Positions 20,165 to 48,781 of a stretch of 64,000 bases of DNA are shown in pieces (positions within the stretch are counted from its first letter, which is position 1; each line of letters starts with the position of its first letter). Under the pieces are notes generated by a model. It was not told where the DNA came from, made no database searches, and worked only from the letters and a program-made list of their open reading frames with translations. The DNA lies in the sequence record DRR378314_405, one strand, 5' to 3'. Both the position numbers and the translations under genes were made by a program.

Positions 20165-20170
20165 GCAACT

Positions 20171-23301: not shown

Positions 23302-23311
23302 TCTACAGTTA

Positions 23312-23346: not shown

Positions 23347-23354
23347 ACAGAGAT

Positions 23355-23816: not shown

Positions 23817-23897
23817 AGAAAACGTCCTTTCAAGTTGAGTACGAAGCTTTAACGCCCGGCTCAAATCATTCCGTCGAAAAAAATTAGACAAATATAT

Positions 23898-23922
23898 TGA
23901 ACAGTGTTCATTTTTATGAACA
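23898..23922. promoter_or_regulatory. Candidate TetR operator (TGAACA-G-TGTTCA plus a third TGAACA half-site)
   Basis: Perfect 13-bp inverted repeat upstream of the crotonase-TetR operon. Confidence 0.55.
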
Positions 23923-23947
23923 ATACGATCAAACGGAGGAAACAATC

Positions 23948-24781: not shown

Positions 24782-24786
24782 ACCCA

Positions 24787-25410: not shown

Positions 25411-25428
25411 CCAAAAAGAACAAGAAAA

Positions 25429-28988: not shown

Positions 28989-29002
28989 TTTTTCGCAGCC
29001 CC

Positions 29003-30211
29003 TTAGACACGTTCAATAATGGTTGCAGTACCCATACCGGCACCCACACAAAGTGTAATCAATGCCGTATTTTGATCCCGGCGTTCCAACTCGTCCAGAA
29101 CCGTTCCCAGGATCATGGCACCCGTTGCACCCAATGGATGGCCCATGGCAATTGCGCCGCCATTGACGTTAATTTCACTGTGATCCACACCCATGACATC
29201 CATAAAGCGCAGAACAACACCGGCGAAAGCTTCGTTCAGCTCCCAAAGATCAATGTCATCTTTGGTCATTCCCGCCCGTTTCAGCGCCTTTTCAGCCGCG
29301 TAAGAAGGGCCGGTTAGCATAATTGAAGGTTCACTTCCGATAGAGGCAAAGGAGCGAAAACGCGCCCGCGGTTTGACATTAATTTTCTCACCGGTTTCTT
29401 TGTTGCCGATCAGCACTGCGGCGGCCCCATCCACAATACCGGAAGAATTACCCGCATGGTGAACATGGTTCAGTCTTTCGACTTCTGGATAGCGCTGACG
29501 GATAACGGAATCAAAACCGTACTGCTCTCCCTGCGTTACAAAGGACGCATCCAACGCGCCCAGCGACTGCATACTTGTTTCGGGTCGCATATGTTCATCA
29601 TGGTCCAGAATTGTCAGACCGTTCATATCTCTGACCGGAATAACAGAATTTTTGAAATACTGATTGTCCCATGAATGTTTGGCCCGTTTCTGGCTTTCAA
29701 CCGCATATGCATCCACATCATCACGGCTATATCCCCATTTGGTGCAGATCATATCTGCGCCAATCCCTTGTGGGGCGAAATAGGTTTTATAGGCGACTTG
29801 CGGATCTGCTGACCAGGCCCCACCGGAGGACCCCATGGGAACCCGGGACATGCTTTCAACACCACCGCCAACGGTTAAATCACTTTGTCCTGACATCACC
29901 TGGGCAGCAGCCATATTGACGGCCTCCAGACCCGATGCACAGAAGCGGTTAATCTGAACACCAGATGCCGTTTCCGCATAACCGGCATGCAAGGGGGCAA
30001 CCCGGCCGATGACGGCGCCTTGCTCCCCAACAGGTTCAACGCAGCCCAAAACCACATCATCAACAAGGGATGTGTCCAACTCGTTTCTTTCCTGCACCGC
30101 TTTCAAGGCAGTGACCGCCAGATTAATCGGCGTGACCTCATGCAAGCTTCCGCTTGCGCGGCCCTTACCGCGAGGGGTTCTCACAGCATCATAGATATAG
30201 GCTTCTGTCAT
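29003..30211 (-). CDS. Acetyl-CoA C-acyltransferase (thiolase)
   Basis: [27 protein letters not shown]. Confidence 0.95.
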
Positions 30212-30231
30212 AATTTCCTCCTTGAGCGCGC

Positions 30232-31368
30232 TTATAGGCTGCGGCTGATAATTTCTTTCATAATTTCGTTAGTGCCCCCATAGATCCGCTGGACACGGGC
30301 ATCTGCATAGGCCCGGGCGACCCGGTACTCCCACATAAATCCATAGCCACCATGCAACTGCAGGCACTCATCAATCAGTTTATTCTCCAAATCCGAACAC
30401 CAGTATTTGGCCATGGCTGCCGTCTCAACGGATAAGTCACCGTCCAACAGCTTGGTTAGACAATCATCGACAAAGGTGCGGGCGATCGTGGCTTCTGTCT
30501 TCATTTCAGCAAGCTTGAACTTGGTATTCTGGAACTGGGCAATACTACGTCCAAAAGCAGTTCGCTCCTTGGTGTATTCAATTGTCTCATCCAAAATGGC
30601 TTCCATGGTTGCTGTCGCACCGATCGCTATCTGCAACCGCTCCCACGCCAGTTCCTGCATCAGGCAGAAGAAACCTTTACCTTCGCCGCCCAGAATTGCA
30701 CTTTCGGGCACGCGAACATCTTCAAAAAAGAGCTCCGCCGTATCCTGCGCTTTTAAGCCAAGTTTGTCCAAGTTTCGGCCCTTAGCAAAGCCCGGTGTAT
30801 CAGCATCCACAAGGAACAGGGTGGTTCCCTTGGCTCCGGCTTCCGGGTCGGTTTTTGCCACCACGATGACAACGTCACTCATATATCCGTTGGTAATGAA
30901 AGTTTTTGACCCGTTGATGACATAATGATCGCCATCCTTGATAGCCCGGGTTTTCACCCCTTGAAGGTCAGAGCCGGCGGCAGGTTCTGTCATGGCAATG
31001 GCACCGATCATTTCGCCGCTGGCCAATTTCGGCAAATATCTCTTTTTCTGTTCTTCCGTGCCATAATTCAAAATATAAGGGCCGACAATTTCCGAATGCA
31101 GACCGAAGCCAGGACCACTGGCACCTGCGCGGGCTTGCTCTTCCATCATGATGACACTGAACAGCTTATCAACACCAAGGCCGCCATACTCTTCGGGAAT
31201 GGTCATGCACAGAAGCCCCTGACGACCAGCTTCAAGCCATGCTTCCCGGCTCACTTGTCCGTCTTTTTCCCATTGGGAATGATGGGGGGTGATATGTTCC
31301 TCATAAAACTTGCGAACTGATTCCCGGAAAATGTTGTGTTCTTCATTGAAAATTTTTCTGGCAGCCAT
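30232..31368 (-). CDS. Long-chain-type acyl-CoA dehydrogenase
   Basis: AMTEPAAGSDLQ, LAWERL, RIYGGTNEIMK. Confidence 0.93.
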   Translation of the reverse strand: MAARKIFNEEHNIFRESVRKFYEEHITPHHSQWEKDGQVSREAWLEAGRQGLLCMTIPEEYGGLGVDKLFSVIMMEEQARAGASGPGFGLHSEIVGPYILNYGTEEQKKRYLPKLASGEMIGAIAMTEPAAGSDLQGVKTRAIKDGDHYVINGSKTFITNGYMSDVVIVVAKTDPEAGAKGTTLFLVDADTPGFAKGRNLDKLGLKAQDTAELFFEDVRVPESAILGGEGKGFFCLMQELAWERLQIAIGATATMEAILDETIEYTKERTAFGRSIAQFQNTKFKLAEMKTEATIARTFVDDCLTKLLDGDLSVETAAMAKYWCSDLENKLIDECLQLHGGYGFMWEYRVARAYADARVQRIYGGTNEIMKEIISRSL

Positions 31369-31413
31369 CTATTTTATCCCAACCCTTTGTTTTAAATATT
31401 ATTTTTAATCATT

Positions 31414-31430
31414 AATGACAATTTGTCATT
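31414..31430. promoter_or_regulatory. Palindromic operator candidate AATGACAA-T-TTGTCATT
   Basis: Perfect inverted repeat 45 bp upstream of the ACAD-thiolase-FadJ operon. Confidence 0.55.
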
Positions 31431-31463
31431 TTTTGACCGCAGAAAAACCGCGATCAATGAATA

Positions 31464-31493
31464 AGGCCATAACAGTCTTCACTATTATGGCCT
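31464..31493 (-). terminator. Hairpin after the 596-aa ACAD
   Basis: AGGCCATAA...TTATGGCCT. Confidence 0.5.
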
Positions 31494-31511
31494 CATCATC
31501 AAGTCCCGGTT

Positions 31512-33302
31512 TTAGAAAGCTTCCGCTTCCAGTTCCATCATAGTTTTTGAGCCTGCGGACATCTTCACCAGAAGTGAAGACACATCCGGGATCATCCGCT
31601 CAAAGAAAAAGCGGGCGGTCACCAGTTTCGTTTCATAAAACTGTTTATCCTCGGTCCCTTCGGCCAGTTTTGCCTTGGCGACTTTTGCCATTCGGGCCCA
31701 CATGAAACCCAGAGCGACAAGACCAAACATCCGCAGATATTCTGTCGAAGCCGCACCCGCCTCATCAGGATTTTTCATACCTTTTTCACCCAGCAGGGCT
31801 GTTCCCTGTTGCAACTTGGCAAAAGATTTTGCCAGCGGCATGACAAATTCCTGCAGATCAGCATTCATCATGTTTTCCTGAATAAACTCATCTACCGGAT
31901 GGAAGAACTGACGTAAAGATCGACCCATGTTAGACGGCAATTTCCGCCCCACCAGATCCAGTGCCTGAATCCCATTGGCACCTTCATAAATCTGGGTGAT
32001 ACGGGCATCACGAACAAACTGTTCCATACCCCATTCCCGGATATAGCCGTGACCGCCATAACATTGCATGGCTGTCGCAGCCAGCTCGAAGCCCATATCG
32101 GTGAAATAGGCTTTGATCACGGGTGTCAGCAATCCCAACGCATCATCCGCGTCGCGGCGGACTTCCGGATCAGGGTGCTTGTCAACCATATCAACCTGCA
32201 GTCCGGCCCATAGGCCCAGCGCCCGCGCGCCTTCGATAAACGCCCGGCAGGTCAACAGGTTCCGGCGAATATCCGGATGCACAATAATTGGATCGGCTGG
32301 TTTTTCCGGCGCTTTCACACCAGAAATCGAACGGCCCTGCAACCGGTCTTTGGAATATTCAACAGCGTTCTGATAGGCAACAACCGCCTGGGACAGTCCC
32401 TGAATACCCACGCCCAGACGCGCCGCATTCATCATGGTGAACATGGCCCGCATACCTTTATGGGCATCGCCCAGCAAATAGCCGGTGGCATCCTCATAAT
32501 TCATGACGCAGGTAGAATTGCCGTGAATACCCATTTTATGCTCGATCGAGCCACAGGTAACGCCATTGCGCTCCGCCGGGTTCTCATTTTCATCCAATGA
32601 GAATTTTGGCACGATGAACAGCGAGACGCCTTTAATACCATCAGGACCGCCCGGGATTTTGGCCAAAACCAAATGCACGATATTGTCAGCCATATCATGC
32701 TCGCCAGCTGAGATAAAAATCTTCGTGCCGGTAATTTTATAGCTGCCGTCTTCTTGCGGGACCGCTTTGGTGCGCATCAGCCCCAGATCCGTTCCGCAAT
32801 GAGGTTCGGTCAGGTTCATGGTTCCCGTCCATTCGCCGGTCACCATTTTTGGAAGCCACGTCTGTTTCTGCTCATCCGTGCCATGCTTATGAATAGCGGC
32901 ATAGGCCCCATGGGTCAGTCCCGGATACATGCCAAACGCCATATTGGCAGAGGACATCATTTCAGCCAGCGCAATTCCAACAACATGGGGCAAACCCTGT
33001 CCGCCATATTCCGGATCGGCATCAATACCCATCCAACCCGCTTCGCGATAGGCATCGAAGGCTTCCTTGAAACCGGTTGGGGTTTTCACCTCACCATTAT
33101 CCCAGGTACATCCTTCCGTGTCGCCAACCTGATTGAGAGGCTGAACGACCTCTTCCATCATTTTGGCACCTTCACTGAGAATGGCATCCACCATATCTGG
33201 CGTTGCATCCTCAAATCCAGGAAGGTTGGTCATGCTGTCCAGTCCCAACAACTCGTTGAGGACAAACTGGATATCCCTGACAGGAGCATTATAAATCGGC
33301 AT
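31512..33302 (-). CDS. Long-form acyl-CoA dehydrogenase (AcdH/DmdC-like, with C-terminal extension)
   Basis: [44 protein letters not shown]. Confidence 0.92.
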
Positions 33303-33314
33303 TTCAAACCTCCC

Positions 33315-35648
33315 TTAATTTCGAAGCGGCTTACCGGTGGTGAGCATATGCTCAATCCGGTCAAGCGTTTTGGTGTTGTGCAGCAAATTCATGAAGCCTT
33401 CCTGCTCCAATTGCAGCATTTTCTTTTCTGTAATTGGCTGCGTTATATCCGTATCACCACCAGACAGAACCCGGCCGACCTCAGCGCCGACAACGGCATC
33501 ATAGGGCGTGGCCCGGCCCATCGTGACAAACCCCTGAACCGCCATATCAAACGCGGCAGCAGCGGTTGGTCCCGGCAGGTTAATTTCAACCTGCTCTGGC
33601 GGGGCATACCCTTCGACCATGGAAAGTGCTCTGGCTTTGGCGTCGGCCAAAACGCGCTTTCTATTCATAGTGACGGCATCGCCGTCCCGCAGGATATGCA
33701 TGTCCCTGGCTTCGGCAGCACTTGTTGCCACTTTGGCCGTGGAAATATTTTCAAATACGGCTGCCAATGCTGGCATCGCGCCGCCAGGACGCTTCTTGTT
33801 GGTCATCGCACGGAACACAAGTTCCTTACATCCGCCAAAACCGGGCAGGACGCCGACACCCACTTCAACAAGTCCCATATAACTTTCGGCATGGGCCTGA
33901 ACCGTATCGGCGGCAAGGACAATTTCACAGCCCCCACCAAGGGCCATGCCTGCTGGTGCAGCGACAACCGGGAACGGAGCGTATTTGAGCTTCATTAGTG
34001 CGTTTTGACCTTCACTAATGGAGTTTTCAATCACTGGCCACATGGCCGCATTCGCCGCGAACAAAACGACACCCACATTGGCACCAACGGAGAAATTATC
34101 CGCATCATTTCCAATGACCAGTGCCTTGAACCCTTTTTTGTCCAATTTCGCGCATTGCTGCAGCATGGTCACCACATCCTGATCGATGCTGTTCATCTTG
34201 GTATGGATCTCAAGACAGGCGACCCCGTCTCCCAGATCCCAGATGCTGGCACCTTTGTTGGACATGACCGGCTCATTCCCGCGTTTAATGTCAGCCAACA
34301 TCCATGCGCCTTCCGCGACAGGAACCTTGGCATATTCACCTTCAACGGTCATATAGAAAGCGTCCGATCCCTCTTCTTTATAAAGAGGGCGATCGCCCAC
34401 TTTTTTCAGAAATTCAGGAACTTCTTTGCCTTCGGCCGCCAAACGGTCGATGAAATACTGATTGCCAAGCTGGTCCAATTGCTGGAACGGTCCATATTTC
34501 CAGGCGTAGCCTGTCTTCATGGCGCTATCGATGGCCATAATATCGTCCGAAATCTCGCCAACCAGGCTTGCCGCATAGCTGATCACTTTGGATAAGATCG
34601 CCCATGCATATTGTCCGCCAACATCGTCAAATTCAACAAGGGCCTGCAGACCTTTTCGGGCCGCTTTGACAGAACCAAGTTGCGGCTTTTGCGCTGTTGC
34701 ATATTCACCGGTTTTCAGATTTCGGGCTTCTTTGACTTTTCGGCCACCCTCCTTGTTCATCCGGTAGAAGCCACCTTTGCCTTTTCGGCCGGTATATCCC
34801 TCGTCGATCATCTGCGAAATGGTGCTGACCATCGGATGGCTTTCATCATATTCCTGGCAGAACGGATCACTGGCTGGCAACTCGCTGAGCATGGACGCAT
34901 TGACTTTCGGTCCAAGGTCGATACCCGTCAGATCACCCAGTCCAAAAATACCGGTTGAAGGAATGCCCATGGGCTTGCCGCAAACGGCGTCTGCTTCTTC
35001 AACGGTCATATCCAGATCAAAGGCAGATTTAATCGCAACAAAAGACCAATAAATCCCGATCCGGTTGCCGATAAAACCAGGAGTATCGAAGCAATCGATT
35101 ACTTCCTTACCAAGTGCGACATCCGCAAACTGGCGAAGATCGGTAATGGCCTCGTTCCGCGTATGCGTTCCTTTAACCAATTCAAAAAGGCGCATATAGC
35201 GCGGCGGATTAAAGAAATGGGTGATGGCAAAGTCTTTTTGCAGACTTTCAGGCATTCCATCCATCAAGGTCTTTAGCGGAATTGTTGAGGTGTTCGATGT
35301 GACGATCGAGCCGGGCTTTCGCACGGCATCCAGTTTCTTGTATAGATCCTGCTTCAGATCGGTCCGCTCGATAATCGCTTCGCAAATCCAGTCACAATCT
35401 GCAACCATATCCAGGTTGTCTTCCAGATTGCCGGTTGCAACCAGCTTGGCATTCCGTTTGTGCATAAACGGGGCCGGCTTGGTTTTCAGCATCTTGGCCA
35501 CTGCCCCTTCAGCAAGGGCGTTGCGATTATCTGCACCTTCTGGAACAATATCCAGCAGGACGGCCTGATACCCTGCATTGGCGACATGGGCGGCGATCGC
35601 TGCGCCCATGACACCGGCACCGATGACGGCTACCTTTTCAATGGCCAT
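33315..35648 (-). CDS. FadN-type 3-hydroxyacyl-CoA dehydrogenase/enoyl-CoA hydratase
   Basis: N-terminal GAGVMG, SNTSTIP, HFFNPPRY; C-terminal crotonase FSVGAN, ALGGGCE. Confidence 0.92.
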   Translation of the reverse strand: MAIEKVAVIGAGVMGAAIAAHVANAGYQAVLLDIVPEGADNRNALAEGAVAKMLKTKPAPFMHKRNAKLVATGNLEDNLDMVADCDWICEAIIERTDLKQDLYKKLDAVRKPGSIVTSNTSTIPLKTLMDGMPESLQKDFAITHFFNPPRYMRLFELVKGTHTRNEAITDLRQFADVALGKEVIDCFDTPGFIGNRIGIYWSFVAIKSAFDLDMTVEEADAVCGKPMGIPSTGIFGLGDLTGIDLGPKVNASMLSELPASDPFCQEYDESHPMVSTISQMIDEGYTGRKGKGGFYRMNKEGGRKVKEARNLKTGEYATAQKPQLGSVKAARKGLQALVEFDDVGGQYAWAILSKVISYAASLVGEISDDIMAIDSAMKTGYAWKYGPFQQLDQLGNQYFIDRLAAEGKEVPEFLKKVGDRPLYKEEGSDAFYMTVEGEYAKVPVAEGAWMLADIKRGNEPVMSNKGASIWDLGDGVACLEIHTKMNSIDQDVVTMLQQCAKLDKKGFKALVIGNDADNFSVGANVGVVLFAANAAMWPVIENSISEGQNALMKLKYAPFPVVAAPAGMALGGGCEIVLAADTVQAHAESYMGLVEVGVGVLPGFGGCKELVFRAMTNKKRPGGAMPALAAVFENISTAKVATSAAEARDMHILRDGDAVTMNRKRVLADAKARALSMVEGYAPPEQVEINLPGPTAAAAFDMAVQGFVTMGRATPYDAVVGAEVGRVLSGGDTDITQPITEKKMLQLEQEGFMNLLHNTKTLDRIEHMLTTGKPLRN

Positions 35649-35650
35649 GA

Positions 35651-36787
35651 TTAGCAAGCCTCCAGAACAGTTGCGATCCCCTGACCACCACCAATACACT
35701 GTGTTGCCAGACCCAGGGATTTACCCTCGCGCTGCAACAAACTCGCAACCTTGCCGGTGATCCGGGCACCTGTTGCGCCCATTGGATGACCAAGCGCAAT
35801 GGCGCCGCCATCAAGGTTGGTATTGTCGTAAGACATGCCAGCCTCTTTCAGAACAGCAATTGACTGCGCAGCAAAGGCTTCATTCAACTCAATAATATCG
35901 ATATCTTTCAACGTAAGGCCCGCACGCTTCAACGCTTTTTCCGTTGCCGGAACTGGTCCAATACCCATAATTTCTGGTGCGCAGCCCGCAACAGCAATCG
36001 ATTTAATCCGCGCCATTTTCGTTAGGCCGTTCGCATCTGCATACTCTTCGGAGCAAATCAAGGTCACAGACGCCCCATCGGTAAGCGGCGATGACGTCGC
36101 TGCCGTTACGGATCCCGCCTCGTCAAACGCTGGCTTCAAACCGGCCAGGGTTTCCATGGTCGTCTCCGGACGAATACATCCATCCTGCTCGACCCGAATA
36201 TTGCCATCGACAATCGGAACAATTTCATCGGCGAATTTGCCAGCTTCGCGCGCTTTCGCTGCACGGGCATGGCTTTCAACCGCCATCTCTTCCTGCTCTT
36301 GACGGGAAATGTTATACTGTTTTGCCAGATTTTCTGCGGTAATCCCCATGGAGACATATGCCTCTGGATACTCTTTATACAGACGGGGATGCGGCGCAGG
36401 ATTGAAACCGCCCATCGGAACGCGAGTCATGCTTTCAATACCACCGCAAATAAACACATCACCGGCACCCATCTGAATGGCACCCGACGCCATATGAATA
36501 GCCTGCATGGATGATCCACAGAACCGGTTGACGGTCGTTGCTGCCGCTGATTTGGGAATGCCCGCCAAAAAGCTGATAATCCGGGCAACGTTCAACCCCT
36601 GCTCGGCTTCCGGGAAGGCGCTGCCGATAATCACATCTTCAATGTCCTCAACATTCACACCGCTGTCTTTTAAAAGACCTTTGACAACCTGCGCCGTCAA
36701 CTCATCGGGACGAACCTTGATCAGCTCACCTTTATTGGCAAGCGTGAAGGGAGAGCGTTTATACCCTGCAATGACCACGTTCTTCAT
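35651..36787 (-). CDS. Thiolase (acetyl-CoA acyltransferase)
   Basis: NRFCGSS, NEAFA, GHPMGATG, QCIGGGQG. Confidence 0.95.
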   Translation of the reverse strand: MKNVVIAGYKRSPFTLANKGELIKVRPDELTAQVVKGLLKDSGVNVEDIEDVIIGSAFPEAEQGLNVARIISFLAGIPKSAAATTVNRFCGSSMQAIHMASGAIQMGAGDVFICGGIESMTRVPMGGFNPAPHPRLYKEYPEAYVSMGITAENLAKQYNISRQEQEEMAVESHARAAKAREAGKFADEIVPIVDGNIRVEQDGCIRPETTMETLAGLKPAFDEAGSVTAATSSPLTDGASVTLICSEEYADANGLTKMARIKSIAVAGCAPEIMGIGPVPATEKALKRAGLTLKDIDIIELNEAFAAQSIAVLKEAGMSYDNTNLDGGAIALGHPMGATGARITGKVASLLQREGKSLGLATQCIGGGQGIATVLEAC

Positions 36788-36903
36788 GATCTAAATTCCT
36801 TTCCAATATCAGCCTGCTTCCTTGATGTCAGGCGGAGGGGTTTTATCGAATTATGCAAAATGGACACCTGACCACCAGGCTCCATGATGAACTACAAATT
36901 AAG

Positions 36904-37320
36904 TTATGCGAGTTTCTTCTTCGGAGCCTTAGTAAGGCATGTGTTCTGCGCCATGAAGTTTTCAAGCTCTGAAATTCCGTCTTCCAGCTCGAGGATGGCA
37001 TCGTTAATGTCTTTACGCTGGATAACAAGCTTGTCCAGCTGCTCCTTACATTTGTTCAATGTGTAGGTGAGTTGCTCCTGGGAAACGCCTTGGGCGGGAT
37101 CATACAGATCAATCATTTTCTTGATTTCCTGCAGGCTAAAGCCAAGTCGGCGCCCTCGTAAAATCAGTTTTAACCGCCCACGATCTCCCCGCGAATAAAC
37201 TCGGGTCAAACCTTCTCGAACAGGGGAAATCAAACCCTTGTCTTCATAAAACCGGATTGTTCGGGAAGTCACCTCAAACTCTTCAGCGAGGTCTGTAATT
37301 GAATACCGTTCTTTTTCCAT
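36904..37320 (-). CDS. liuR: MerR-family regulator, LiuR-like
   Basis: YSITDLAEEFEVTSRTIRFYEDKGL, RLKLILRGRRLGFSL; upstream LiuR-type palindromes. Confidence 0.82.
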   Translation of the reverse strand: MEKERYSITDLAEEFEVTSRTIRFYEDKGLISPVREGLTRVYSRGDRGRLKLILRGRRLGFSLQEIKKMIDLYDPAQGVSQEQLTYTLNKCKEQLDKLVIQRKDINDAILELEDGISELENFMAQNTCLTKAPKKKLA

Positions 37321-37355
37321 TCCATCTCCCAAAAGAATGTCACTGGGTAGACAAT

Positions 37356-38312: not shown

Positions 38313-39236
38313 ATGCCAGTTTATCTACCCATTGCCGAGATTTCAGTGAATTTATTTCTGATCTTGGGCATGGGCGGAGCGGTTGGCCTGTTGTCGGGCA
38401 TGTTTGGGGTTGGCGGTGGGTTTTTGATGACACCGCTGCTGATCTTTACCGGCATCCCGCCCGCAGTGGCCGTGGCCACTGGCGCGAACCAGCTTGTCGC
38501 CGCCAGCGTATCTGGCGTTATTGCCCATTGGCGGCGTGGCAACGTTGACTTCAAAATGGGGACCGTTTTGCTGGTTGGCGGCTTGTTCGGCTCCGCCCTC
38601 GGCACCTGGATTTTTGCCATTCTGAAAACCGCAGGGCAGGTGGATCTGTTAATTTCACTGTCCTACGTGCTCTTTCTCGGTGTCATCGGCGGGCTGATGT
38701 TTGTGGAAAGTATCGGCGCGATTATCAAAAGCAAGCGCGGTACGACTAAACGCAAAAAACTGCATCAGCATTATTGGATCCACGGCCTTCCGTTCAAAAT
38801 GCGGTTTCGAAAGTCCAAGCTCTATATCAGCGCCCTGTTACCCCTGACGCTAGGCTTTTTTGTCGGTATTTTGTCCGCCATCATGGGGGTTGGGGGCGGC
38901 TTTATCATGGTGCCGGCCATGATCTATCTGATGGGCATGCCGACAACTGTGGTCATTGGCACGTCTTTGTTCCAGATTATTTTTGTGACTGCCAATGTCA
39001 CCTTTCTTCATTCAGCCACAACCCAAACCGTGGACGTTCTACTGGCGTTGCTGCTGATGAGCAGCGCGGTGGTCGGCGCCCAGATCGGAACACGCATCGG
39101 CTCCCGTATGAAGGGGGAACAGCTGAGATCCTTTCTGGCCATTATGGTGCTTCTGGTTTGCGGAAAACTGGCGCTTGATCTGGTGCTAACGCCCGATGAC
39201 CTCTTTAGCTTCATCATTTTGCAGGGAGAGAAATAG
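38313..39236 (+). CDS. Sulfite exporter TauE/SafE (TSUP) family transporter
   Basis: Duplicated G..G.GGGF...P motifs; many TM segments. Confidence 0.9.
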   Translation: MPVYLPIAEISVNLFLILGMGGAVGLLSGMFGVGGGFLMTPLLIFTGIPPAVAVATGANQLVAASVSGVIAHWRRGNVDFKMGTVLLVGGLFGSALGTWIFAILKTAGQVDLLISLSYVLFLGVIGGLMFVESIGAIIKSKRGTTKRKKLHQHYWIHGLPFKMRFRKSKLYISALLPLTLGFFVGILSAIMGVGGGFIMVPAMIYLMGMPTTVVIGTSLFQIIFVTANVTFLHSATTQTVDVLLALLLMSSAVVGAQIGTRIGSRMKGEQLRSFLAIMVLLVCGKLALDLVLTPDDLFSFIILQGEK

Positions 39237-39238
39237 AC

Positions 39239-40006
39239 ATGCGCCGTCCTCTTTTTCTCATCCTGATCCTGCTGGCCAATTCTGTTTTTTTGAGCACAAG
39301 CGCCAAAGCCAATAATACGCTGGTTACAGATATTTCCTCCCATTTGATTTCGGTCACCTCCGACTTCACCGGAACAGATCTGCTGCTTTTCGGCTCCATT
39401 CAGTCATCGGCCGATTATGACCTGTCCAAACCCGGTGATATCATTGTCGTGGTTCGCGGCCCACACCGAGATGTCATGGTCCGCAAGAAAGAGCGCATTC
39501 TGGGCGTATGGGCAAATACGCAATCTGTATCGCTGGCGCATGTTCCCGGGTTTTACGCAATCGCCAGCAATAAACCGCTGGAGGAAATCACAGATCCGGC
39601 AACATTGGGTCGCTTGCGAATTGGAAAAGACAACCTTGGCATCGTGGAAAAAACATCCAACCAACCTTTGAGGGACTATATCGCGTCTGTGATCCGGCAG
39701 AATACGCAAAGCGCCCTTTATTCCTATAATGATGCGGCAGTCCTCTTTTTGGGGAGTTCGCTTTTTCGAACCTCCGTTCACTTTCCGGCGAACGTACCTG
39801 TGGGAAATTACATAGCCGAAGTCTATTTATTCCTCAACGGCGAGCTGATCAGCGCACAGACATCCCCTCTGTTCATCAAAAAATTTGGTATTGGCCGGCG
39901 GATTTTTGAATTTGCCAACACATACCCCTATATACATGGAATAGCCGCTATTCTGATCTCTCTCGCGGCGGGCTGGATCGCTTCAGCACTGTTTCGAAAA
40001 GACTAG
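39239..40006 (+). CDS. TIGR02186-like conserved alphaproteobacterial membrane protein
   Basis: FTGTDLLLFG, VRKKER..G.W.N, LFRT...PAN.P.G.Y; C-terminal TM; follows TauE. Confidence 0.82.
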   Translation: MRRPLFLILILLANSVFLSTSAKANNTLVTDISSHLISVTSDFTGTDLLLFGSIQSSADYDLSKPGDIIVVVRGPHRDVMVRKKERILGVWANTQSVSLAHVPGFYAIASNKPLEEITDPATLGRLRIGKDNLGIVEKTSNQPLRDYIASVIRQNTQSALYSYNDAAVLFLGSSLFRTSVHFPANVPVGNYIAEVYLFLNGELISAQTSPLFIKKFGIGRRIFEFANTYPYIHGIAAILISLAAGWIASALFRKD

Positions 40007-40108
40007 GATTTATATTTTCCTTTTTGTTTGCTTTCAAATAAACTGGTCAAACACGCTCAGAAATAAAACCAGTTGGTTCAAACCAACAAAAACAATAAGG
40101 GATCCTTC

Positions 40109-40924
40109 ATGAGTGCATCTTTCAACGCCCTTGTGGCGCATATTACCGACGGAATGAAACTTGCTGTACCTGCTGACTATGCAGGGATTGCGATGGAAAC
40201 CACCCGTGAAATTATCCGCCAGCGCCGACGTGACCTCCATATCATTGGTGTTCCAACCTCTGGCTTTCAGTCTGAACTTCTCATTGGTGCAGGCTGTGTT
40301 GCGACCTATGAAAGCTCTGCGCTGACAATGGGTGAACACAATCCCCCGCCCCGTTTCAGTCAAGCTGTAAAATCTGGCAGCGTTAAGCTGGTTGATGCCA
40401 CCTGCCCGGCTGTTCACGCCGGCTTGCAAGCCTCACAAAAAGGGATTCCCTTCATGCCCCTTCGCGGTATTCTGGGCAGTGATATTGTCAAGCATCACCC
40501 GGACTGGAGAGTTATTCAAAACCCGCTCACCAACGAAGAAGACCCGATCGTGATCATCCCGGCGATCCAACCGGATTTTTCCATATTTCATGCCCCAATG
40601 GCGGATCGAAACGGAAACATCTGGGTCGGCCGGCGCCGTGAACTTATCAATATGGCACAAGCTTCCAAAGGGGCGCTGGTTACGGTGGAAAAACTGTATG
40701 ATGGGGATTTGTTGGAAGATGAAACCTATGCCGCCGGAACCCTGCCAGCGCTTTATGTGACAGATTACAGCCTTGCTCCCGATGGTAGTTGGCCCCTTGG
40801 CTTTTGGCAGGGCAAAGGCGAAGACAGAGACCATTTGAAACGCTATTGCCAAATGGCAAGAAGCGAGGATGGATTTGCCGAATACCTGACTGAATTTGTC
40901 ATGAAGGAGAGCGCTCATGTCTGA
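40109..40924 (+). CDS. Class I CoA-transferase-like alpha subunit (GctA-like)
   Basis: ITDG..., GLQA...G.PFMP.RG..GSD, PAI.PD...H...AD..GN. Confidence 0.85.
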   Translation: MSASFNALVAHITDGMKLAVPADYAGIAMETTREIIRQRRRDLHIIGVPTSGFQSELLIGAGCVATYESSALTMGEHNPPPRFSQAVKSGSVKLVDATCPAVHAGLQASQKGIPFMPLRGILGSDIVKHHPDWRVIQNPLTNEEDPIVIIPAIQPDFSIFHAPMADRNGNIWVGRRRELINMAQASKGALVTVEKLYDGDLLEDETYAAGTLPALYVTDYSLAPDGSWPLGFWQGKGEDRDHLKRYCQMARSEDGFAEYLTEFVMKESAHV

Positions 40925-41660
40925 TGCGGATCTCAAAAAAGAACTGATCTGTTTTATCGCGAACCTTCTGCGCGACTGCAATCATGTTGCGGTTGGGGCA
41001 TCCTCTCCGATCCCTGGCGCTGCGGCGCTGCTGGCAAAGGAAGCATGGCAAAATCCGCGCTTTATCAACATTCTGGGATCGGTCAAAAACAACTTTTTCA
41101 CCAACGGTGCCCAGGAGTTATTTGATTGCGCCGCGCAAGGCCGGATCGACGCGTTTTTCCTGAGCGGTGGTCAAATTGATGGCCAGGCAAATATAAACCT
41201 GATGGGTATCGGCGATTACCCCCAAAACAGTCCTCGCTGGTCTGGCACGTTTGGATCTGCGTATCTGTATTTCCTGATCCCCAAGGTCATTTTGTTTCGC
41301 GAAGAACATACGCGCCGTGTCCTGGTCGACAAAGTGAATTTCATTAGTGCCCCTGGCACCAGCGAAGACCAGATTTATCGGCATGGCGGACCTTACGGTT
41401 TACTGACCAATAAATGCTTCTTCCGGTTTGACAAAACCAAGCGGCGCTTCAAACTTCAGAGTATTCATCCGCAAAGCTCTCTCGAAGATGTTTTGGACAA
41501 TACCGGGTTTGAGTTTGATTATGAGGTGGACACGCCGGTGACCCTAACGGCAGACCCGGAACTCAGGCAGCTTTTGGAAACAAAAATCAGCCCTAAAGTC
41601 CGCGAGGTTTACCCACAATTTGCAGATAGCGTTTTTGCGCAGCCTGCTGAAATATCCTAA
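40917..41660 (+). CDS. Class I CoA-transferase-like beta subunit (GctB-like)
   Basis: FLSGGQIDG.ANIN, V.KV.FISAPG, L.SIHP......V..NTGF. Confidence 0.85.
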   Translation: MSDADLKKELICFIANLLRDCNHVAVGASSPIPGAAALLAKEAWQNPRFINILGSVKNNFFTNGAQELFDCAAQGRIDAFFLSGGQIDGQANINLMGIGDYPQNSPRWSGTFGSAYLYFLIPKVILFREEHTRRVLVDKVNFISAPGTSEDQIYRHGGPYGLLTNKCFFRFDKTKRRFKLQSIHPQSSLEDVLDNTGFEFDYEVDTPVTLTADPELRQLLETKISPKVREVYPQFADSVFAQPAEIS

Positions 41661-41693
41661 AGATACCTAATGCTAAAGTGAGTTAAGGACGTA

Positions 41694-42896
41694 GTGATGA
41701 CAAGTACCGGTGCATTGAGTGGCCTTAAGGTCATTGACCTTTCGCGAGTTCTGGGCGGACCATTTTGTACCCAGATTCTGGCCGATCATGGCGCAGAAGT
41801 CATAAAGGTTGAGCCCCCTCAGGGTGATGAAACCCGTACATGGGGACCTCCCTTCAACGAAGCGGGGCTCTCGGCTTATTTTTCCGGCGCCAATCGCAAC
41901 AAGCGGTCCATGGCCGTAGACATCCGAAAAGACGAAGGCAAGGAAATCCTTCTGAAACTGTTGGAAACGGCGGACGTTCTTGTTGAAAACTTCAAAACCG
42001 GCTCTCTGGAAAAATGGGGACTGGGCTATGAAGAGGTGTTATCGAAAAAATTTCCAACGCTTATTCACTGCCGTGTCACCGGATTTGGTGCCGATGGTCC
42101 GTTTGGGGGTTTCCCGGGATATGACGCGGTTTTGCAGGCCTGGGCCGGACTGATCAGTGTCAACGGATCCCCGGAATCCGGTCCGGTTCGTGTGGGTATT
42201 CCGCTGATTGATCTGGGAACTGGCATGAATGCGGTGATCGGCATTCTGATGGCGGTCAACGAACGGCATAAATCCGGAAAAGGCCAATCGGTTGAAGCGT
42301 CCCTTTATGACACAGGCATCCAGCTTCAGCATCCACATGCGGCAAATAACCTGATGAGCGGGAAAGAGCCGGTCCTCACAGGCAACTCACATCCCAATAT
42401 CGCGCCCTATGATCTTTATACAACGGCCAACACTCCGATCTTTCTCGGGATCGGAAATAACGGTCAGTTTCGCAAGCTCTGCACGGCTCTGGGATGTCCG
42501 GAGCTGCCAGATGATCCGAGGTTTGTCGATAATTCGAGCCGCCTGGCACATCGGGCTGAGCTTAATGAGATTTTGGAAGATTTTCTGAAAGACAAGGACG
42601 GGGTCGCATTTGCCACCGAACTGTTGGAAGCTGGCGTGCCCGCTGGCGCGGCTATGAGCCTTTCTGAAGCGTTGCAACATCCGCATACGAAACATCGGGA
42701 CATGGTCGTTGAAAAAGACGGGTATGCCGGAACAGGTGTTGCCGTTAAAATGAGCCGAACGCCCGGCGGACTTCACAGTGCGCCCCCTGCATTTGGGGCA
42801 AACGGATCTGAAATCCTGTCGGAGATCGGATATAGCGAAGCAGAGATTGCCCGTCTTCTGGAGGATGAAATCCTCTGGGAGAAACCGAAGGTGTAA
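41694..42896 (+). CDS. Class III (CaiB/BaiF) CoA transferase
   Basis: L.GL.VIDLSRVLGGP, GAEVIKVE, GDETR, NRNKRS, ADV.VENF, GYD, P.ID. Confidence 0.93.
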   Translation: MMTSTGALSGLKVIDLSRVLGGPFCTQILADHGAEVIKVEPPQGDETRTWGPPFNEAGLSAYFSGANRNKRSMAVDIRKDEGKEILLKLLETADVLVENFKTGSLEKWGLGYEEVLSKKFPTLIHCRVTGFGADGPFGGFPGYDAVLQAWAGLISVNGSPESGPVRVGIPLIDLGTGMNAVIGILMAVNERHKSGKGQSVEASLYDTGIQLQHPHAANNLMSGKEPVLTGNSHPNIAPYDLYTTANTPIFLGIGNNGQFRKLCTALGCPELPDDPRFVDNSSRLAHRAELNEILEDFLKDKDGVAFATELLEAGVPAGAAMSLSEALQHPHTKHRDMVVEKDGYAGTGVAVKMSRTPGGLHSAPPAFGANGSEILSEIGYSEAEIARLLEDEILWEKPKV

Positions 42897-42999
42897 TATC
42901 TATCACCTTGACGATCCATCATCGGCACATAAGAATAGTTATGACGAAACAAAGTTGAGCTAGACCCGTGCATACGGGGAAAAAACTGGGAATTCAATC

Positions 43000-45330
43000 A
43001 TGGTGAAATTTGGCGTTAATCAATCCGTTGATCGGATCGAAGATGATCGACTGGTAAGGGGAGCAGGGGAATATACAGATGATATCAACCTGGACGGCCA
43101 GCTATACGGATATATGCTGCGCTCCCCGGTTGCTCACGGGAAAATCCTGTCGATAGACCTGGAGGATGCACAAAGTTCACCCGGCGTTGTCGCGATTTAT
43201 ACAGGCAAAGATCTGGAGGCTGAGAACGCCAATCAACGCCCCTGTATGATTCCGCTTAAAAATTCAGATGGATCAAATCGCGCTGACCCTGGCCATCCCG
43301 TCATGGCTATTGATGAAGTTTGCTATGTTGGCGACAATATCGCTTTTGTTGTTGCTGAAACACTGGAGCAGGCCAAAGATGCTGCAGAGTTGATATCTGT
43401 GGATTTTGACGAGCTTGATGCCGTCTGCGATACCGCCACCGCCGATCAAGAAGGCAAAGCACTGGTTCATCAATCAGTTGCAAACAACAGGGCGTTCGAC
43501 TGGTCCCATGGATCATCTGACGACCTTGCGGGGATCTTTGCGAAGGCCGCTCACGTAACAGAGCTAGAGCTGATTAACAATCGGATCGTTGTCAATTCCA
43601 TGGAACCCCGGGGGGTTATTGCCGATTGGGATCAAGGCAGCGAAAAAATGACCGTGCGCATGGGAACGCAGGGGGGATGGGTCACCAGATCTCTGTTGGC
43701 AAATCACGTGCTGCATATCCCGGAAGAAAATGTCCGCGTGATCACCCCTGATGTCGGCGGCGCTTTTGGCATGAAACTCTTTTTCTATTCCGAATGTGTT
43801 GCAACTGTTTGGGCCAGCCGCAAATTGGGTAAACCCATTAAATGGATTGGCGAACGAAGCGACGCCTTCCTGTCCGACACCCAGGGACGGGATCATGTCA
43901 CAACGGCGTCACTTGCCTTCGATGCAAATCATAAAATCCTGGGTATGAAGGTTGAGACACGGGCAAATCTTGGGGCTTACCTGTCAACATTTGGCCCCAT
44001 GATCCCCACCATGGCCGCCGTCAAAGTTCTTCCCGGTGTTTATGATATTCCGGCGCTTTATTACCGATCCATCGGGCTTTTTACCAACACGGTTCCGGTC
44101 GATGCCTATCGCGGCGCCGGCCGGCCCGAGGCCATCTATGTGATCGAACGGTTAATGGATAAAGCTGCGGGGGAACTTGCACTCGGCCCGGAGGACATCC
44201 GCCGGATCAATTTCATTCCTGTCTCTGCGATCCCTTATAAAACCGCCACCGGCTGCGTTTATGACAGTGGTGAGTTTGAACATTTAATGGATCGCGCGCT
44301 GGAAACATCCAAATGGACTGAGTTTGAAAGCCGCCAAAAGGACTCAGCCGGTAAGGGAAAAATTCGCGGGCGGGGGATGTGCTATTACATCGAAGCCACA
44401 GCAGGAAACCCAACCGAAAGCGCAACCATCCGTTTTGAAGATGATGGCATTGTGACACTTGCCGTTGGCACTCAGTCCAGCGGCCAGGGGCATTCAACCG
44501 CCTATGCCCAGGTTGTCAGAGAGAGACTGGGTGTGCCATTTGAAAACATTCGCATTATCCAGGGCGATACGGACAAAATCAAAACCGGTGGGGGCACTGG
44601 CGGCTCCCGCTCCTTGACAACACAAGGCCCTGCCATTCACGCCGCAAGTGATAAAGTCATTGAAAAAGCAACCCAGCTTGCGGGTAACTTTCTGGAAGCT
44701 GCCCCCGAAGATATTGAATTTTCAGCCGAAGAAGGCGCGTTCAGAATTGCCGGCACTGACCGACAGATCGGACTTCTGGAAATTGCCGATCGGGCGCGCG
44801 GACTTGGGCAACTTCCGGATGGCTTGGAAGAAGGCCTGGATAGCGAGGCCAGCTTTACAGTTGAAGCCTTCACCTATCCAAATGGATGTCATATTGCAGA
44901 AGTGGAAATTGATCCGGAAACCGGAAATACGGAGGTTGTCAAATATGACATCGTGGATGATTTTGGCACCATCGTGAACCCACCTTTGGTTCGACATCAA
45001 GTCATTGGCGGTGTTGGTCAGGGCATTGGTCAGGCGCTGACCGAAAACACTGTTTATTCCGAAGATGGCCAGCTTCTAACCGGATCTTTTATGGATTATG
45101 CGATGCCCCGCGCGGATAACATCCCGCTGGATATGAGCTATGAGACCATCGAAATCCCCTGCACGATGAACCCAATGGGCGTTAAAGGATGCGGCGAGGC
45201 AGGCTGTATTGCCGCACCGCCCGCGATTATTAATGCTATTATTGATGGTCTTAAAGACAAGGGAATCGAACATCTTGATATGCCCGCAACTCCCCGTAAA
45301 GTCTGGGAGGCCGTTAACCAAACCGGTTAA
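43000..45330 (+). CDS. Xanthine dehydrogenase-family molybdopterin-binding large subunit (CoxL-like, form II type)
   Basis: DVGGAFGMK, AYRGAGRPE, GQGH.T, GGSRS, QV.GGV.QG.G, GVKGCGE. Confidence 0.9.
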   Translation: MVKFGVNQSVDRIEDDRLVRGAGEYTDDINLDGQLYGYMLRSPVAHGKILSIDLEDAQSSPGVVAIYTGKDLEAENANQRPCMIPLKNSDGSNRADPGHPVMAIDEVCYVGDNIAFVVAETLEQAKDAAELISVDFDELDAVCDTATADQEGKALVHQSVANNRAFDWSHGSSDDLAGIFAKAAHVTELELINNRIVVNSMEPRGVIADWDQGSEKMTVRMGTQGGWVTRSLLANHVLHIPEENVRVITPDVGGAFGMKLFFYSECVATVWASRKLGKPIKWIGERSDAFLSDTQGRDHVTTASLAFDANHKILGMKVETRANLGAYLSTFGPMIPTMAAVKVLPGVYDIPALYYRSIGLFTNTVPVDAYRGAGRPEAIYVIERLMDKAAGELALGPEDIRRINFIPVSAIPYKTATGCVYDSGEFEHLMDRALETSKWTEFESRQKDSAGKGKIRGRGMCYYIEATAGNPTESATIRFEDDGIVTLAVGTQSSGQGHSTAYAQVVRERLGVPFENIRIIQGDTDKIKTGGGTGGSRSLTTQGPAIHAASDKVIEKATQLAGNFLEAAPEDIEFSAEEGAFRIAGTDRQIGLLEIADRARGLGQLPDGLEEGLDSEASFTVEAFTYPNGCHIAEVEIDPETGNTEVVKYDIVDDFGTIVNPPLVRHQVIGGVGQGIGQALTENTVYSEDGQLLTGSFMDYAMPRADNIPLDMSYETIEIPCTMNPMGVKGCGEAGCIAAPPAIINAIIDGLKDKGIEHLDMPATPRKVWEAVNQTG

Positions 45331-47122: not shown

Positions 47123-48700
47123 ATGACCGAAAAGAAATCCGCCAAAGGACAGCGCATAAAACTGACTGTGCGTCCTGCAACCCCATCTGACATCGCAGGG
47201 ATTGCCGCGCTCAGCACCAAGGTTTATGGCGTGGATCTGAGCCTCACGGATAAAACCATTGCCGGACAGATCTCCAACTTTCCAGAAGGGCAGTTTGTTG
47301 CCGAATATAACGGGCAGATTGTTGGTCACTGCGCAACCTTCATCATCTCCGGTGCGATTGCCCTTAAACAGCATAACTGGGATCAGATTACCGGCTACGG
47401 GTTCGCCTCCCGCCACGATCTGGACGGGGATTTCCTGTATGGCATGGAAGTCTGTGTGGATCCGGAATATCGCCGGCTGCGAATTGGCAAACGCCTGTAT
47501 AATGCGCGCAAGAAACTCTGTACGGATTATCACTTAAAGGGGATTGTCTTTGGCGGTCGCATGCCGGGCTATGGCCGCCGGGTCAAATCTTTTCCAGATC
47601 CCGCAGACTATCTTGATCAGATCGTCGAAGGTCAGGTGAAGGACACTGTGGTCAATTTTCATCTTCGCAACGGCTTTGAAGCGATCGGTGTTCTGAAAAA
47701 CTACCTGCCCTCGGACAAGGCCTCTCGCGGTCATGCAACCCATATGATCTGGCACAATCCCGCCATCGAGGAGGGAGACAACCGCACACCGGAACAACGG
47801 GGGCGCACCCAGAATTCTGTCCGGATCGCGTCTGTGCAATATCAGGTTCGCAAAGTGAATTCTTTTGAAGATTTTGCAAAGCAGGTTGAATATTTTGTCG
47901 ATGTCGCGGCCGATTACACGGCCGATTTCGTGCTGTTTCCGGAACTGCTGACCATTCCGCTGGTCTCTATGGAGCCGGACAGGCTCTCCCCGCAGCAGTC
48001 CATCGAGCTGATCACCACCTATACGGATCAGTATATAAAATTCATGCAGAACCTGGCCGTGTCCTACAACATCAATATCATTGGTGGCTCTCACCCCACC
48101 CGGATTGATGAGGAAACCATTGAAAACCATGCCTATATCTTTTTACGGGACGGGCAGTTTCATACGCAGCCCAAACTCCATCCGACGCCCAACGAAAGCT
48201 ATTGGTGGAATATCAAAGGGGGCGACAGCCTGAAAACCATCCAGACCGATTGCGGGCCGATCGGGGTTCTGATTTGCTATGATGCGGAATTTCCAGAACC
48301 AGTTCGCCATCTGACGGACCAAGGCGCGAAAATTCTGTTTGTGCCTTTTTGTACGGATGAACGGCAGGGATACCTGCGTGTTCGCTATTGTTGCCAGGCC
48401 CGGGCGATTGAAAACCAGATCTATGTGGCGACCGCTGGCATTGTCGGCAACCTGCCGGATGTCGAGAATATGGATGTGCATTACGCCGAAAGTGGCATTT
48501 ATACCCCATGCGATTTCCCCTTCGCCCGGGACGGAATTGCCGCCATGGCAGACACCAACACGGAAAGCATTGTCTTTGCTGATCTGCGCCTGGATCAACT
48601 GACCATCAGCCGAAATTCCGGCACAGTCCGAAACCTCAAAGACAGGCGATTTGATCTCTACCGAGTTGACTGGAAAACCCCGGAAACTGGGAAAAATTAG
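47123..48700 (+). CDS. GNAT acetyltransferase + carbon-nitrogen hydrolase fusion
   Basis: N-terminal VDPEYRRLRIG acetyl-CoA motif; C-terminal nitrilase triad FPE/QPKLH/ICYD. Confidence 0.9.
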   Translation: MTEKKSAKGQRIKLTVRPATPSDIAGIAALSTKVYGVDLSLTDKTIAGQISNFPEGQFVAEYNGQIVGHCATFIISGAIALKQHNWDQITGYGFASRHDLDGDFLYGMEVCVDPEYRRLRIGKRLYNARKKLCTDYHLKGIVFGGRMPGYGRRVKSFPDPADYLDQIVEGQVKDTVVNFHLRNGFEAIGVLKNYLPSDKASRGHATHMIWHNPAIEEGDNRTPEQRGRTQNSVRIASVQYQVRKVNSFEDFAKQVEYFVDVAADYTADFVLFPELLTIPLVSMEPDRLSPQQSIELITTYTDQYIKFMQNLAVSYNINIIGGSHPTRIDEETIENHAYIFLRDGQFHTQPKLHPTPNESYWWNIKGGDSLKTIQTDCGPIGVLICYDAEFPEPVRHLTDQGAKILFVPFCTDERQGYLRVRYCCQARAIENQIYVATAGIVGNLPDVENMDVHYAESGIYTPCDFPFARDGIAAMADTNTESIVFADLRLDQLTISRNSGTVRNLKDRRFDLYRVDWKTPETGKN

Positions 48701-48704
48701 AAAA

Positions 48705-48781
48705 TGGCGCACCGGGGAAGATTCGAACTCCCGACCCCTAGATTCGTAGTCTAGTGCTCTATCCAGCTGAGCTACCGGTGC
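48705..48781 (-). tRNA. tRNA-Arg (anticodon ACG), CCA encoded
   Basis: GCACCGGTAGCTCAGCTGGATAGAGCACTAGACT-ACG-AATCTAGGGGTCGGGAGTTCGAATCTTCCCCGGTGCGCCA folds as a cloverleaf. Confidence 0.97.

Follow-up and report, generated by a model that had tools for sequence, protein, structure and literature searches.

A cysteine-type alpha/beta protein pair of the class I CoA-transferase fold, encoded beside a class III CoA-transferase gene

We describe a three-gene locus in a 64,000-nucleotide stretch of DNA from sequence record DRR378314_405 (the window), in which genes for the alpha and beta subunits of a protein related to class I coenzyme A (CoA) transferases are followed by a gene for a class III CoA-transferase of the CaiB/BaiF family (Table 1). 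Judged from sequence comparison, the pair is a member of a large uncharacterised clade of the fold shared by GctAB, AibAB and IpdAB, which we call Cys-type because the glutamate of the beta subunit has been lost throughout the family and a cysteine of the alpha subunit, Cys99, is invariant. A ribosome-binding site, AAGGGA, lies 5' of the alpha start codon at ATG 40109; a longer form beginning at TTG 40073 was judged unlikely. The start of the beta gene overlaps the alpha stop codon by 8 nt (ATGTCTGA), and its translation includes VAVGASSPIPGAAALLAKEAWQNPRFINILGS. The CaiB gene starts 33 nt after beta on the same strand, with ATG 41697 as an alternative start. Going by the spacing of the three genes and the synteny described below, they may be co-transcribed.

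Table 1. Features of the locus, with window coordinates and the basis of each assignment
Feature	Coordinates	Strand	Basis
Alpha subunit, 271 aa, class I CoA-transferase fold (GctA/AibA/IpdA-like)	40109..40924	+	Pfam, profile vs PDB, Foldseek
Alpha Glu76 (MGEH Glu), family-specific conserved acid at predicted subunit interface	40334..40336	+	Conservation, model
Alpha Cys99 (TGC), motif D96-A-T-C-P100, proposed catalytic residue	40403..40405	+	Alignment, conservation, model
Beta subunit, 247 aa	40917..41660	+	Pfam, profile vs PDB, Foldseek
Beta F49-I-N-I-L-G-S55, site of lost catalytic glutamate (Ile52 or Leu53)	41061..41081	+	Profile alignments, homologue counts
Beta Glu67 (ELFD), conserved acid	41115..41117	+	Homologue counts
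Beta G110-T-F-G-S114, degenerate GXGG(A/F) oxyanion-loop motif	41244..41258	+	Homologue counts, aligned relatives
Class III (CaiB/BaiF family) CoA-transferase	41694..42896	+	PF02515 404.9 bits, residues 8-369
CoxL-like molybdenum hydroxylase large subunit, possible Sneathiella-specific member of the gene group	43000..45330	+	Pfam, NCBIfam, PDB CoxL 2e-151

Both subunits carry the Pfam domain PF01144, as expected of the class I fold, with scores that pass the cut-off of 23 bits modestly (31.9 bits for alpha and 42.3 bits for beta), and no NCBIfam model matched either of them. When profiles built from 29 alpha and 30 beta homologues were compared with all PDB sequences, alpha matched AibA (1e-34), GctA (4.5e-31) and IpdA (6e-28), and beta matched AibB (1.3e-36), GctB (1.5e-36) and IpdB (4.5e-27). 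AlphaFold2 models of the two chains are confident, with predicted local confidence (pLDDT) values of 93.8 for beta and 92.4 for alpha. Their best Foldseek matches in the PDB are again AibAB, GctAB and IpdAB, at template-modelling (TM) scores of 0.70-0.80 for beta and 0.84-0.89 for alpha and at 18-27% identity, and the search of the PDB returned no solved structure closer than these. The sequence-only reading that preceded this work had compared the pair with the same three systems, and the profile and structure matches bear this out. The closest match of beta is an S. limimaris protein, 91% identical, which places the source of the window in Sneathiella (Alphaproteobacteria).

The central claim of the sequence-only reading was that the beta subunit lacks the catalytic glutamate of the fold, with Leu53 of the segment FINILGS standing in its place. 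Translation confirms the segment and the Leu53 codon (CTG, 41073-41075); the exact correspondence depends on the alignment used. The profile of 30 homologues sets HIIVE of GctB on rvsil of beta, so that GctB Glu54 falls on Leu53, close to where a weak and uneven local alignment runs out, whereas the full-length alignment with AibB sets C-V-G-S of AibB on I-L-G-S of beta. According to a passage of PMC7756340, AibB Cys56 replaces the Gct glutamate, and because this cysteine aligns with Ile52, Ile52 would be the equivalent residue by the second route. The position of the lost glutamate is therefore ambiguous by one residue, and may be Ile52 rather than Leu53. For the loss itself this is immaterial, since glutamate occurs at neither position in any of the 160 homologues examined. 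Position 52 is V, I, L or M and position 53 is L in all 80 genomic homologues, taken from the 80 closest genomic loci, and none of the 80 more distant metagenomic homologues has glutamate at 52 or 53. Alpha and beta were counted by tblastn and hidden Markov model (HMM) searches of six-frame open reading frames (ORFs), a greedy ORF caller weighted by GC content at third codon positions (GC3) having missed or split one or other gene in some high-GC loci. The role of Glu54 in glutaconate CoA-transferase (GCT), and its absence from IpdAB, are stated in a passage of PMC5380842. The loop that follows the motif is shortened, as had also been proposed: it spans 27 positions of the family profile against about 50 residues in GctB, and an insertion of 17-18 residues present in AibB is absent.

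A second element of the active site has also degenerated. True class I CoA-transferases carry the oxyanion-loop motif GXGG(A/F), which at beta 110-114 reads GSFGS in 66 and GTFGS in 9 of the 80 genomic homologues. The aligned segments are G-S-G-G-A in GctB, G-V-A-G-A in AibB and G-V-R-G-A in IpdB; the third glycine is thus gone in beta, as it is in AibB and IpdB, both non-transferases. With neither the beta-subunit glutamate motif ((S)ENG/ESG) nor an intact GXGG(A/F) loop, the pair is quite probably not a classical glutamate-dependent transferase. The sequence-only reading had also pointed to the acids of MGEH in alpha (Glu76) and ELFD in beta (Glu67) as possible replacements. Both are indeed conserved: Glu76 is kept in 98% of 103 sequences and Glu67 in 97% of 159 (80/80 genomic and 76/80 metagenomic homologues), and alpha 75-76 lies in the predicted subunit interface. 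A catalytic role for either is only possible. In the profile alignments the Glu76 column holds R in AibA, S in IpdA and V in GctA, and the Glu67 column holds D in AibB and K in IpdB.

The most informative feature of the pair, absent from the sequence-only reading, is Cys99 of the alpha subunit. In the profile alignment, the column of Cys99 is occupied by the single residue that differs between 6co6_A (REMDEGMV) and 6coj_A (REMDAGMV), a change that the title of PDB entry 6coj names as IpdAB E105A. Cys99 therefore lies in the column of IpdA Glu105, where AibA has Gly and GctA has Gln. We take Glu105, partly from PDB entry titles, to be the catalytic base of this steroid-ring hydrolase. Of 79 genomic alpha matches, 78 have the cysteine, the remaining one ending at a contig edge. 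So do 29/29 full-length metagenomic alpha ORFs that adjoin distant beta homologues, where it follows the pattern (D/E)-x-(T/S/V)-C-(P/S/G); the other 51 of the 80 metagenomic loci, mostly on short contigs, yielded no alpha ORF of full length. Pooled, the cysteine is found in 100% of 103 near-full alpha sequences. It is also kept more strictly than Glu76, which is absent from 3 of the 29 distant metagenomic alphas, whereas Cys99 is absent from none. Distant alpha paralogues with Glu in this column, as in IpdA, occur in Sneathiella litorea (L084, 1501-2307) and Pseudaminobacter salicylatoxidans (L085, 1501-2295), at 22-28% identity. Both genomes also carry a Cys-type pair, and the coexistence of the two types within one genome indicates that they are separate lineages. 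A predicted helix of the alpha model (99-111) begins with Cys99, and a position at a helix N-terminus generally lowers the pKa of a thiol. We consider it rather likely that Cys99 is catalytic.

A heterodimer, the arrangement of class I CoA-transferases, is also predicted here. With CoA included, the complex of alpha and beta reached an interface score (ipSAE) of 0.91, the median of three runs (0.91-0.92), against 0.00 for the best control. It thereby passes the calibration mark, which 51 of 78 solved complexes attained but only 2 of 108 mismatched pairs did. The three runs share at least 97% of contacts, with partner pLDDT of at least 90. Since complexes of GctAB, AibAB and IpdAB have been solved, this result may reflect likeness or memory rather than independent evidence. 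The predicted interface comprises alpha 70-73, 75-76 and 96-101 and beta 53-54, 62-66 and 109-116, and its contact pairs include a99-b112 and a99-b113. As all three lie in this predicted interface, Cys99, the site of the former glutamate and the degenerate oxyanion loop would line one cleft.

The family is large and widespread. In a protein collection clustered at 90%, 7717 of 8000 scored candidates were beta homologues at E <= 1e-3; at 50% identity, 996 representatives matched at E <= 1e-3 and 100 at E <= 1e-30. Close relatives occur in at least 582 species-representative genomes (582 of 600 candidate stretches confirmed), and the family extends to Burkholderiales. In databases the proteins are labelled 'CoA-transferase', 'CoA synthetase' or 'glutaconate CoA-transferase subunit B', and matches in the ESM Atlas were confined to 'putative CoA-transferase/synthetase' clusters. 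A full-text literature search, subscription literature being outside its coverage, found no paper on a Cys-type member. Alpha adjoins beta in 80/80 genomic loci. A search for fusions returned 15 longer proteins, namely alpha-beta fusions and single-member chimeras with Ldh_2, GFO/IDH/MocA, CaiB or permease domains; we rejected these as Rosetta-stone evidence, as they are probably gene-calling artefacts that reflect adjacency.

The gene most consistently associated with the pair is that of the adjacent CaiB enzyme. Its product has the CoA_transf_3 domain over its full length, in keeping with class III membership. Its relatives in NCBIfam are succinate-glutarate, oxalate and mesaconate transferases, all below cut-off and none at an equivalog level, the best being succinate-glutarate CoA-transferase (333 bits against a cut-off of 750); the nearest PDB entries are 4ed9, YfdE and SUGCT. 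By sequence, its nearest characterised relatives are dicarboxylate transferases. In Frc, the class III enzyme of oxalate metabolism, the catalytic aspartate is Asp169. Of the 80 genomic loci, 20 have an orthologue of the CaiB gene (53-85% identity) no more than 2.6 kb downstream on the same strand, and in 16 it comes directly after beta. In four of five genomes without an adjacent CaiB gene, a clear orthologue is found elsewhere (54-61% identity, next best at most 43%). In the distant metagenomic clade, five loci have a CaiB gene after beta, and four have genes there that resemble ADP-forming acyl-CoA synthetases.

Co-occurrence supports the same association. Among 301 evenly sampled Alphaproteobacteria genomes, 52 had a strong beta match at E <= 1e-50 (nearly all below 1e-98), in single copy in 51 of the 52, and 54 had a CaiB orthologue at E <= 1e-120 (51-90% identity). 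Both genes were present in 36 genomes, beta only in 16, CaiB only in 18 and neither in 231, so that the orthologue was found in 36 of 52 beta-positive and 18 of 249 beta-negative genomes (odds ratio 28.9, Fisher p 6e-21, without correction for phylogeny or genome size). Of the 52 beta-positive genomes, 21 have the two genes no more than 150 nt apart and 27 have them within 3.5 kb of each other. On this evidence from gene order and distribution, adjacency to CaiB is a family-wide signature and not chance, and it is probable that the pair works functionally with the CaiB enzyme. The link thus holds well beyond this genome, and it fits the suggestion of the sequence-only reading that the CaiB enzyme makes a CoA ester which the pair transforms.

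How the two might act together is summarized in the following model. We tentatively prefer the explanation that the CaiB enzyme makes a dicarboxylyl-CoA and that the pair transforms it without CoA transfer, decarboxylation being the favoured reaction; more tentatively still, this may be a cofactor-free decarboxylation of the malonyl or glutaconyl type. The adjacent CaiB-type transferase would first load a small dicarboxylic acid onto CoA. The pair would then bind the thioester in the interface cleft, against the loop at beta 110-114, and release the free carboxylate as CO2 by malonyl-type or glutaconyl-type (vinylogous) decarboxylation. Cys99, backed by alpha Glu76 or beta Glu67, would protonate the enolate, in parallel with the Cys56/Glu72 relay proposed for AibAB in PMC7756340, using other sequence positions. 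Finally, the CaiB enzyme would re-use the product acyl-CoA as CoA donor, as in the Frc/Oxc cycle of oxalate. Oxalyl-CoA itself was rejected as the substrate on chemical grounds, as its decarboxylation needs thiamine-type umpolung.

Several considerations lead us to favour decarboxylation within this model. AibAB is the nearest relative, and the Cys/Glu proton relay proposed for it in the same source could have been reassembled here with residues at different sites. The partner transferase is of the dicarboxylate type. Alpha is immediately preceded by an MFS gene in 8 of 9 Sneathiella-like loci; the representative of its cluster is similar, below cut-offs, to lactate and oxalate/formate transporters, and the resulting order of MFS, alpha, beta and CaiB recalls OxlT, Frc and Oxc. 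The MFS gene is absent from the window, at 40006-40109, and from L001, where an Alph_Pro_TM gene abuts alpha, as seen by comparison with L002-L009. In two loci, an acyl-CoA dehydrogenase gene lies divergently upstream of the pair, and its product is closest to non-decarboxylating glutaryl-CoA dehydrogenase (330 bits, cut-off 470). In its fullest form the model would make the pair and CaiB an unrecognised decarboxylation module that needs neither thiamine nor biotin, in which a Cys/Glu relay has been re-invented, the CoA ester produced starts a further cycle and, by analogy, an MFS carrier of the sister species plays the part of OxlT. In this full extent we regard it as doubtful.

A number of observations weigh against decarboxylation, or against the partnership on which the model is built. 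Gene neighbourhoods differ greatly among the 80 closest genomic loci, and neither these nor 60 metagenomic loci hold a single conserved pathway beyond CaiB. In 16 of the 52 beta-positive genomes no CaiB orthologue was found with this query, and the co-occurrence statistic, besides being uncorrected for phylogeny and genome size, comes from scoring 6-9 candidates per genome. A cysteine in this fold need not be essential, since the AibB variants C56A/S/N/V stay active, according to a passage of PMC7756340. The conservation of alpha Glu76 and beta Glu67 means that CoA transfer could persist. Lastly, the position of Cys99, at the base of IpdA and not at the cysteine of AibB, favours IpdAB-like hydration or C-C cleavage at least as strongly as it favours decarboxylation.

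This last point is the basis of an alternative in which the pair is an IpdAB-like hydratase or C-C hydrolase, acting by retro-Claisen or retro-aldol chemistry on a beta-keto or enoyl dicarboxylyl-CoA, with Cys99 serving either as the base in place of Glu105 or, in the manner of a thiolase, as the nucleophile in a short-lived thio-adduct or acyl-enzyme. The exact alignment of Cys99 with IpdA Glu105 suits this proposal, as do the coexistence of Glu-type and Cys-type pairs as paralogues and, by established chemistry, the place of the cysteine at a predicted helix N-terminus, which is suited to a thiolate nucleophile. The beta glutamate is absent from both lineages, for IpdAB as stated in part of PMC5380842. 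Set against this, a Pfam-level check of the window showed no steroid or ring-catabolic neighbours around the pair, profile scores are slightly poorer for IpdAB than for AibAB and GctAB, and a tightly linked CoA-transferase of the dicarboxylate type is not obviously needed by a C-C hydrolase. We consider this alternative unlikely.

Another possibility is that the pair is still a CoA-transferase, with its catalytic carboxylate moved to alpha Glu76 or beta Glu67. The conservation of both acids noted above, the presence of alpha 75-76 and beta 62-66 in the predicted interface and the CoA-transferase names given to the family by databases are consistent with this. Yet both class I signature motifs are degenerate, the most conserved neighbour is itself a dedicated CoA-transferase that would make a second one redundant, and Cys99 is more strictly kept than either glutamate (Glu76 is missing in 3/29 distant alphas, Cys in 0/29). 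Relocation of the carboxylate is improbable. An acyl-CoA isomerase or epimerase, which would catalyse a cis-trans change, an allylic double-bond shift or alpha-epimerisation with Cys99 as acid/base or Michael nucleophile, is quite improbable. Cysteine is used in this manner in maleate isomerase, methylitaconate isomerase and IPP isomerase, and the pair has an invariant Cys and a Glu in the predicted thioester-binding site; in addition, the CaiB enzyme has relatives that act on mesaconate and glutarate, and genes for GST and small cupins recur in some neighbourhoods. Nothing specific speaks for isomerisation, however, and no conserved hydratase or lyase follows the pair. Very improbable is an acyl-CoA thioesterase or acyltransferase with acyl-S-Cys99 as its intermediate: a cysteine can take an acyl group from CoA and the fold can hydrolyse, judging from a CtfAB active-site mutant deposited as 'hydrolase' (title of 9cq2), but hydrolysis beside a CoA-transferase would be a futile cycle, and some distant loci have a separate 4HBT thioesterase after CaiB.

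The remaining neighbours of the pair vary with lineage. Across the loci they include transporters (MFS, ABC, TRAP, TctC, TauE), three kinds of molybdenum enzyme, GFO/IDH/MocA oxidoreductases, small cupins, sets of sugar kinase and aldolase genes, and housekeeping genes. The molybdenum enzymes near the pair are, by lineage, of the CoxL, IorB and BisC/TorA types. In the window, the CoxL-like gene lies 103 nt downstream of CaiB, and the gap holds a promoter-like site (42908-42936) from a scan that found promoters and terminators at chance level (13 against 10.8 expected and 17 against 12.5). Its place after CaiB is confined to Sneathiella-like loci: of the 8 with a CaiB gene, 7 show it and the remaining one ends at that point. 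The CoxL-like gene is also nearby in two other loci. No partner small (2Fe-2S) or medium (FAD) subunit of CoxL was found among the 49 window ORFs scanned with Pfam. In L026, L040, L032 and L036, a small cupin gene (123-130 aa) separates beta from CaiB or comes just before alpha. Two of these, L026 and L040, also hold two CoxL-like genes, a GST gene and an acyl-CoA dehydrogenase gene whose nearest match is non-decarboxylating glutaryl-CoA dehydrogenase.

Upstream of the pair, window positions 38313-40006 encode a TauE/SafE-family permease, which in Sneathiella is accompanied by an Alph_Pro_TM protein. Unrelated TauE-family genes lie directly after or beside beta in other loci (L013, L015, L017, L039, L071, L011, L018 and L059), and some TauE loci also hold a sulfopyruvate-decarboxylase-like pair of thiamine pyrophosphate (TPP) enzyme genes or a 3-hydroxyisobutyrate-dehydrogenase-like gene. 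Together with TauD-like neighbours, these genes may hint at organosulfonate or small-anion metabolism, the matches being below curated cut-offs and the loci few and related.

Elsewhere in the window, an Atu/Liu-like cluster on the plus strand (16482-26789) encodes an SDR, an acyl-CoA carboxyltransferase, an acyl-CoA dehydrogenase, a biotin carboxylase with biotinyl domain, a second acyl-CoA dehydrogenase, an enoyl-CoA hydratase, a TetR regulator and two 4HBT thioesterases. A beta-oxidation block on the minus strand (26856-37332) holds a FadB-like gene and genes for a thiolase, two acyl-CoA dehydrogenases, a second 3-hydroxyacyl-CoA dehydrogenase/hydratase and a thiolase, and ends with a MerR-family (LiuR-like) regulator gene (36907-37332). 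Beyond the CoxL-like gene, a 525-aa fusion of a GNAT acetyltransferase and a carbon-nitrogen hydrolase of the nitrilase superfamily is encoded at 47123-48700, followed by tRNA-Arg(ACG) at 48705-48781 on the minus strand.

Knowing the reaction of the pair would correct thousands of annotations and would give a function to a specific CaiB clade within an enzyme family that is rich in paralogues and poorly understood. A new dicarboxylate route in marine and soil bacteria might also emerge. If the decarboxylation module is real, it would be a widespread and so far unnoticed way of handling a small dicarboxylic acid, present in single copy in about one-sixth of sampled Alphaproteobacteria and also in Burkholderiales.

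The oxalate cycle of Frc, Oxc and OxlT combines a class III CoA-transferase, an acyl-CoA decarboxylase and an MFS carrier of the oxalate/formate family, and Oxc is a thiamine-diphosphate enzyme. By analogy, the order of MFS, alpha, beta and CaiB genes in sister Sneathiella loci would resemble the logic of this cycle. The fold of Oxc is unrelated to that of the pair; the likeness would be one of pathway logic only.

Among the systems that share the fold, AibA/AibB, the 3-methylglutaconyl-CoA decarboxylase of Myxococcus xanthus (PDB 5mzw-5n03), gives the best profile and Foldseek match to both subunits. Like the pair, it has two subunits of the class I CoA-transferase fold and has lost both the beta glutamate and the third glycine of GXGG. 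Its active-site pair of Cys56 and Glu72 is proposed, in a passage of PMC7756340, as the proton relay for the enolate formed by decarboxylation. In contrast, identity to the pair is only 19-27%, AibB has its cysteine at the former glutamate site, where the pair has Ile/Leu (Ile52 aligning with AibB Cys56), the loop of 17-18 residues that carries Glu72 in AibB is absent from the pair, and AibA has Gly in the Cys99 column. IpdAB/ScdL1L2, the hydrolase that cleaves the ring of COCHEA-CoA in steroid catabolism (PDB 6co6, 6co9, 6coj, 6con), likewise has the same fold and has lost the beta glutamate, the latter as reported in part of PMC5380842. Its alpha subunit supplies a catalytic residue at the alignment column where we propose one for the pair, but that residue is Glu105 in IpdA and Cys99 here, the column being Cys in all 103 sequences. 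Identity is 18-23%, IpdAB-like Glu-type paralogues are separate genes in related genomes, and a Pfam-level check of the window found none of the steroid ring C/D neighbourhood (echA20, ipdC, ipdF, fadA6, kstR2) around the pair, whose neighbours are TauE, Alph_Pro_TM, CaiB, CoxL-like, SnoaL-like and EamA genes. GctAB, the glutaconate CoA-transferase of Acidaminococcus fermentans (PDB 1poi), shares fold and subunit organisation with the pair and gives the highest TM scores (0.80 for beta, 0.89 for alpha), but GctB Glu54 and the G-S-G-G-A loop are gone from the pair, and GctA has Gln in the Cys99 column. Two re-purposed forms of the class I CoA-transferase fold are already known, the IpdAB hydrolase and the AibAB decarboxylase. 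Because the pair lacks the defining residues of GctAB, AibAB and IpdAB alike, we set it beside the latter two as a putative third non-transferase solution, in which the catalytic cysteine would come from the alpha subunit.

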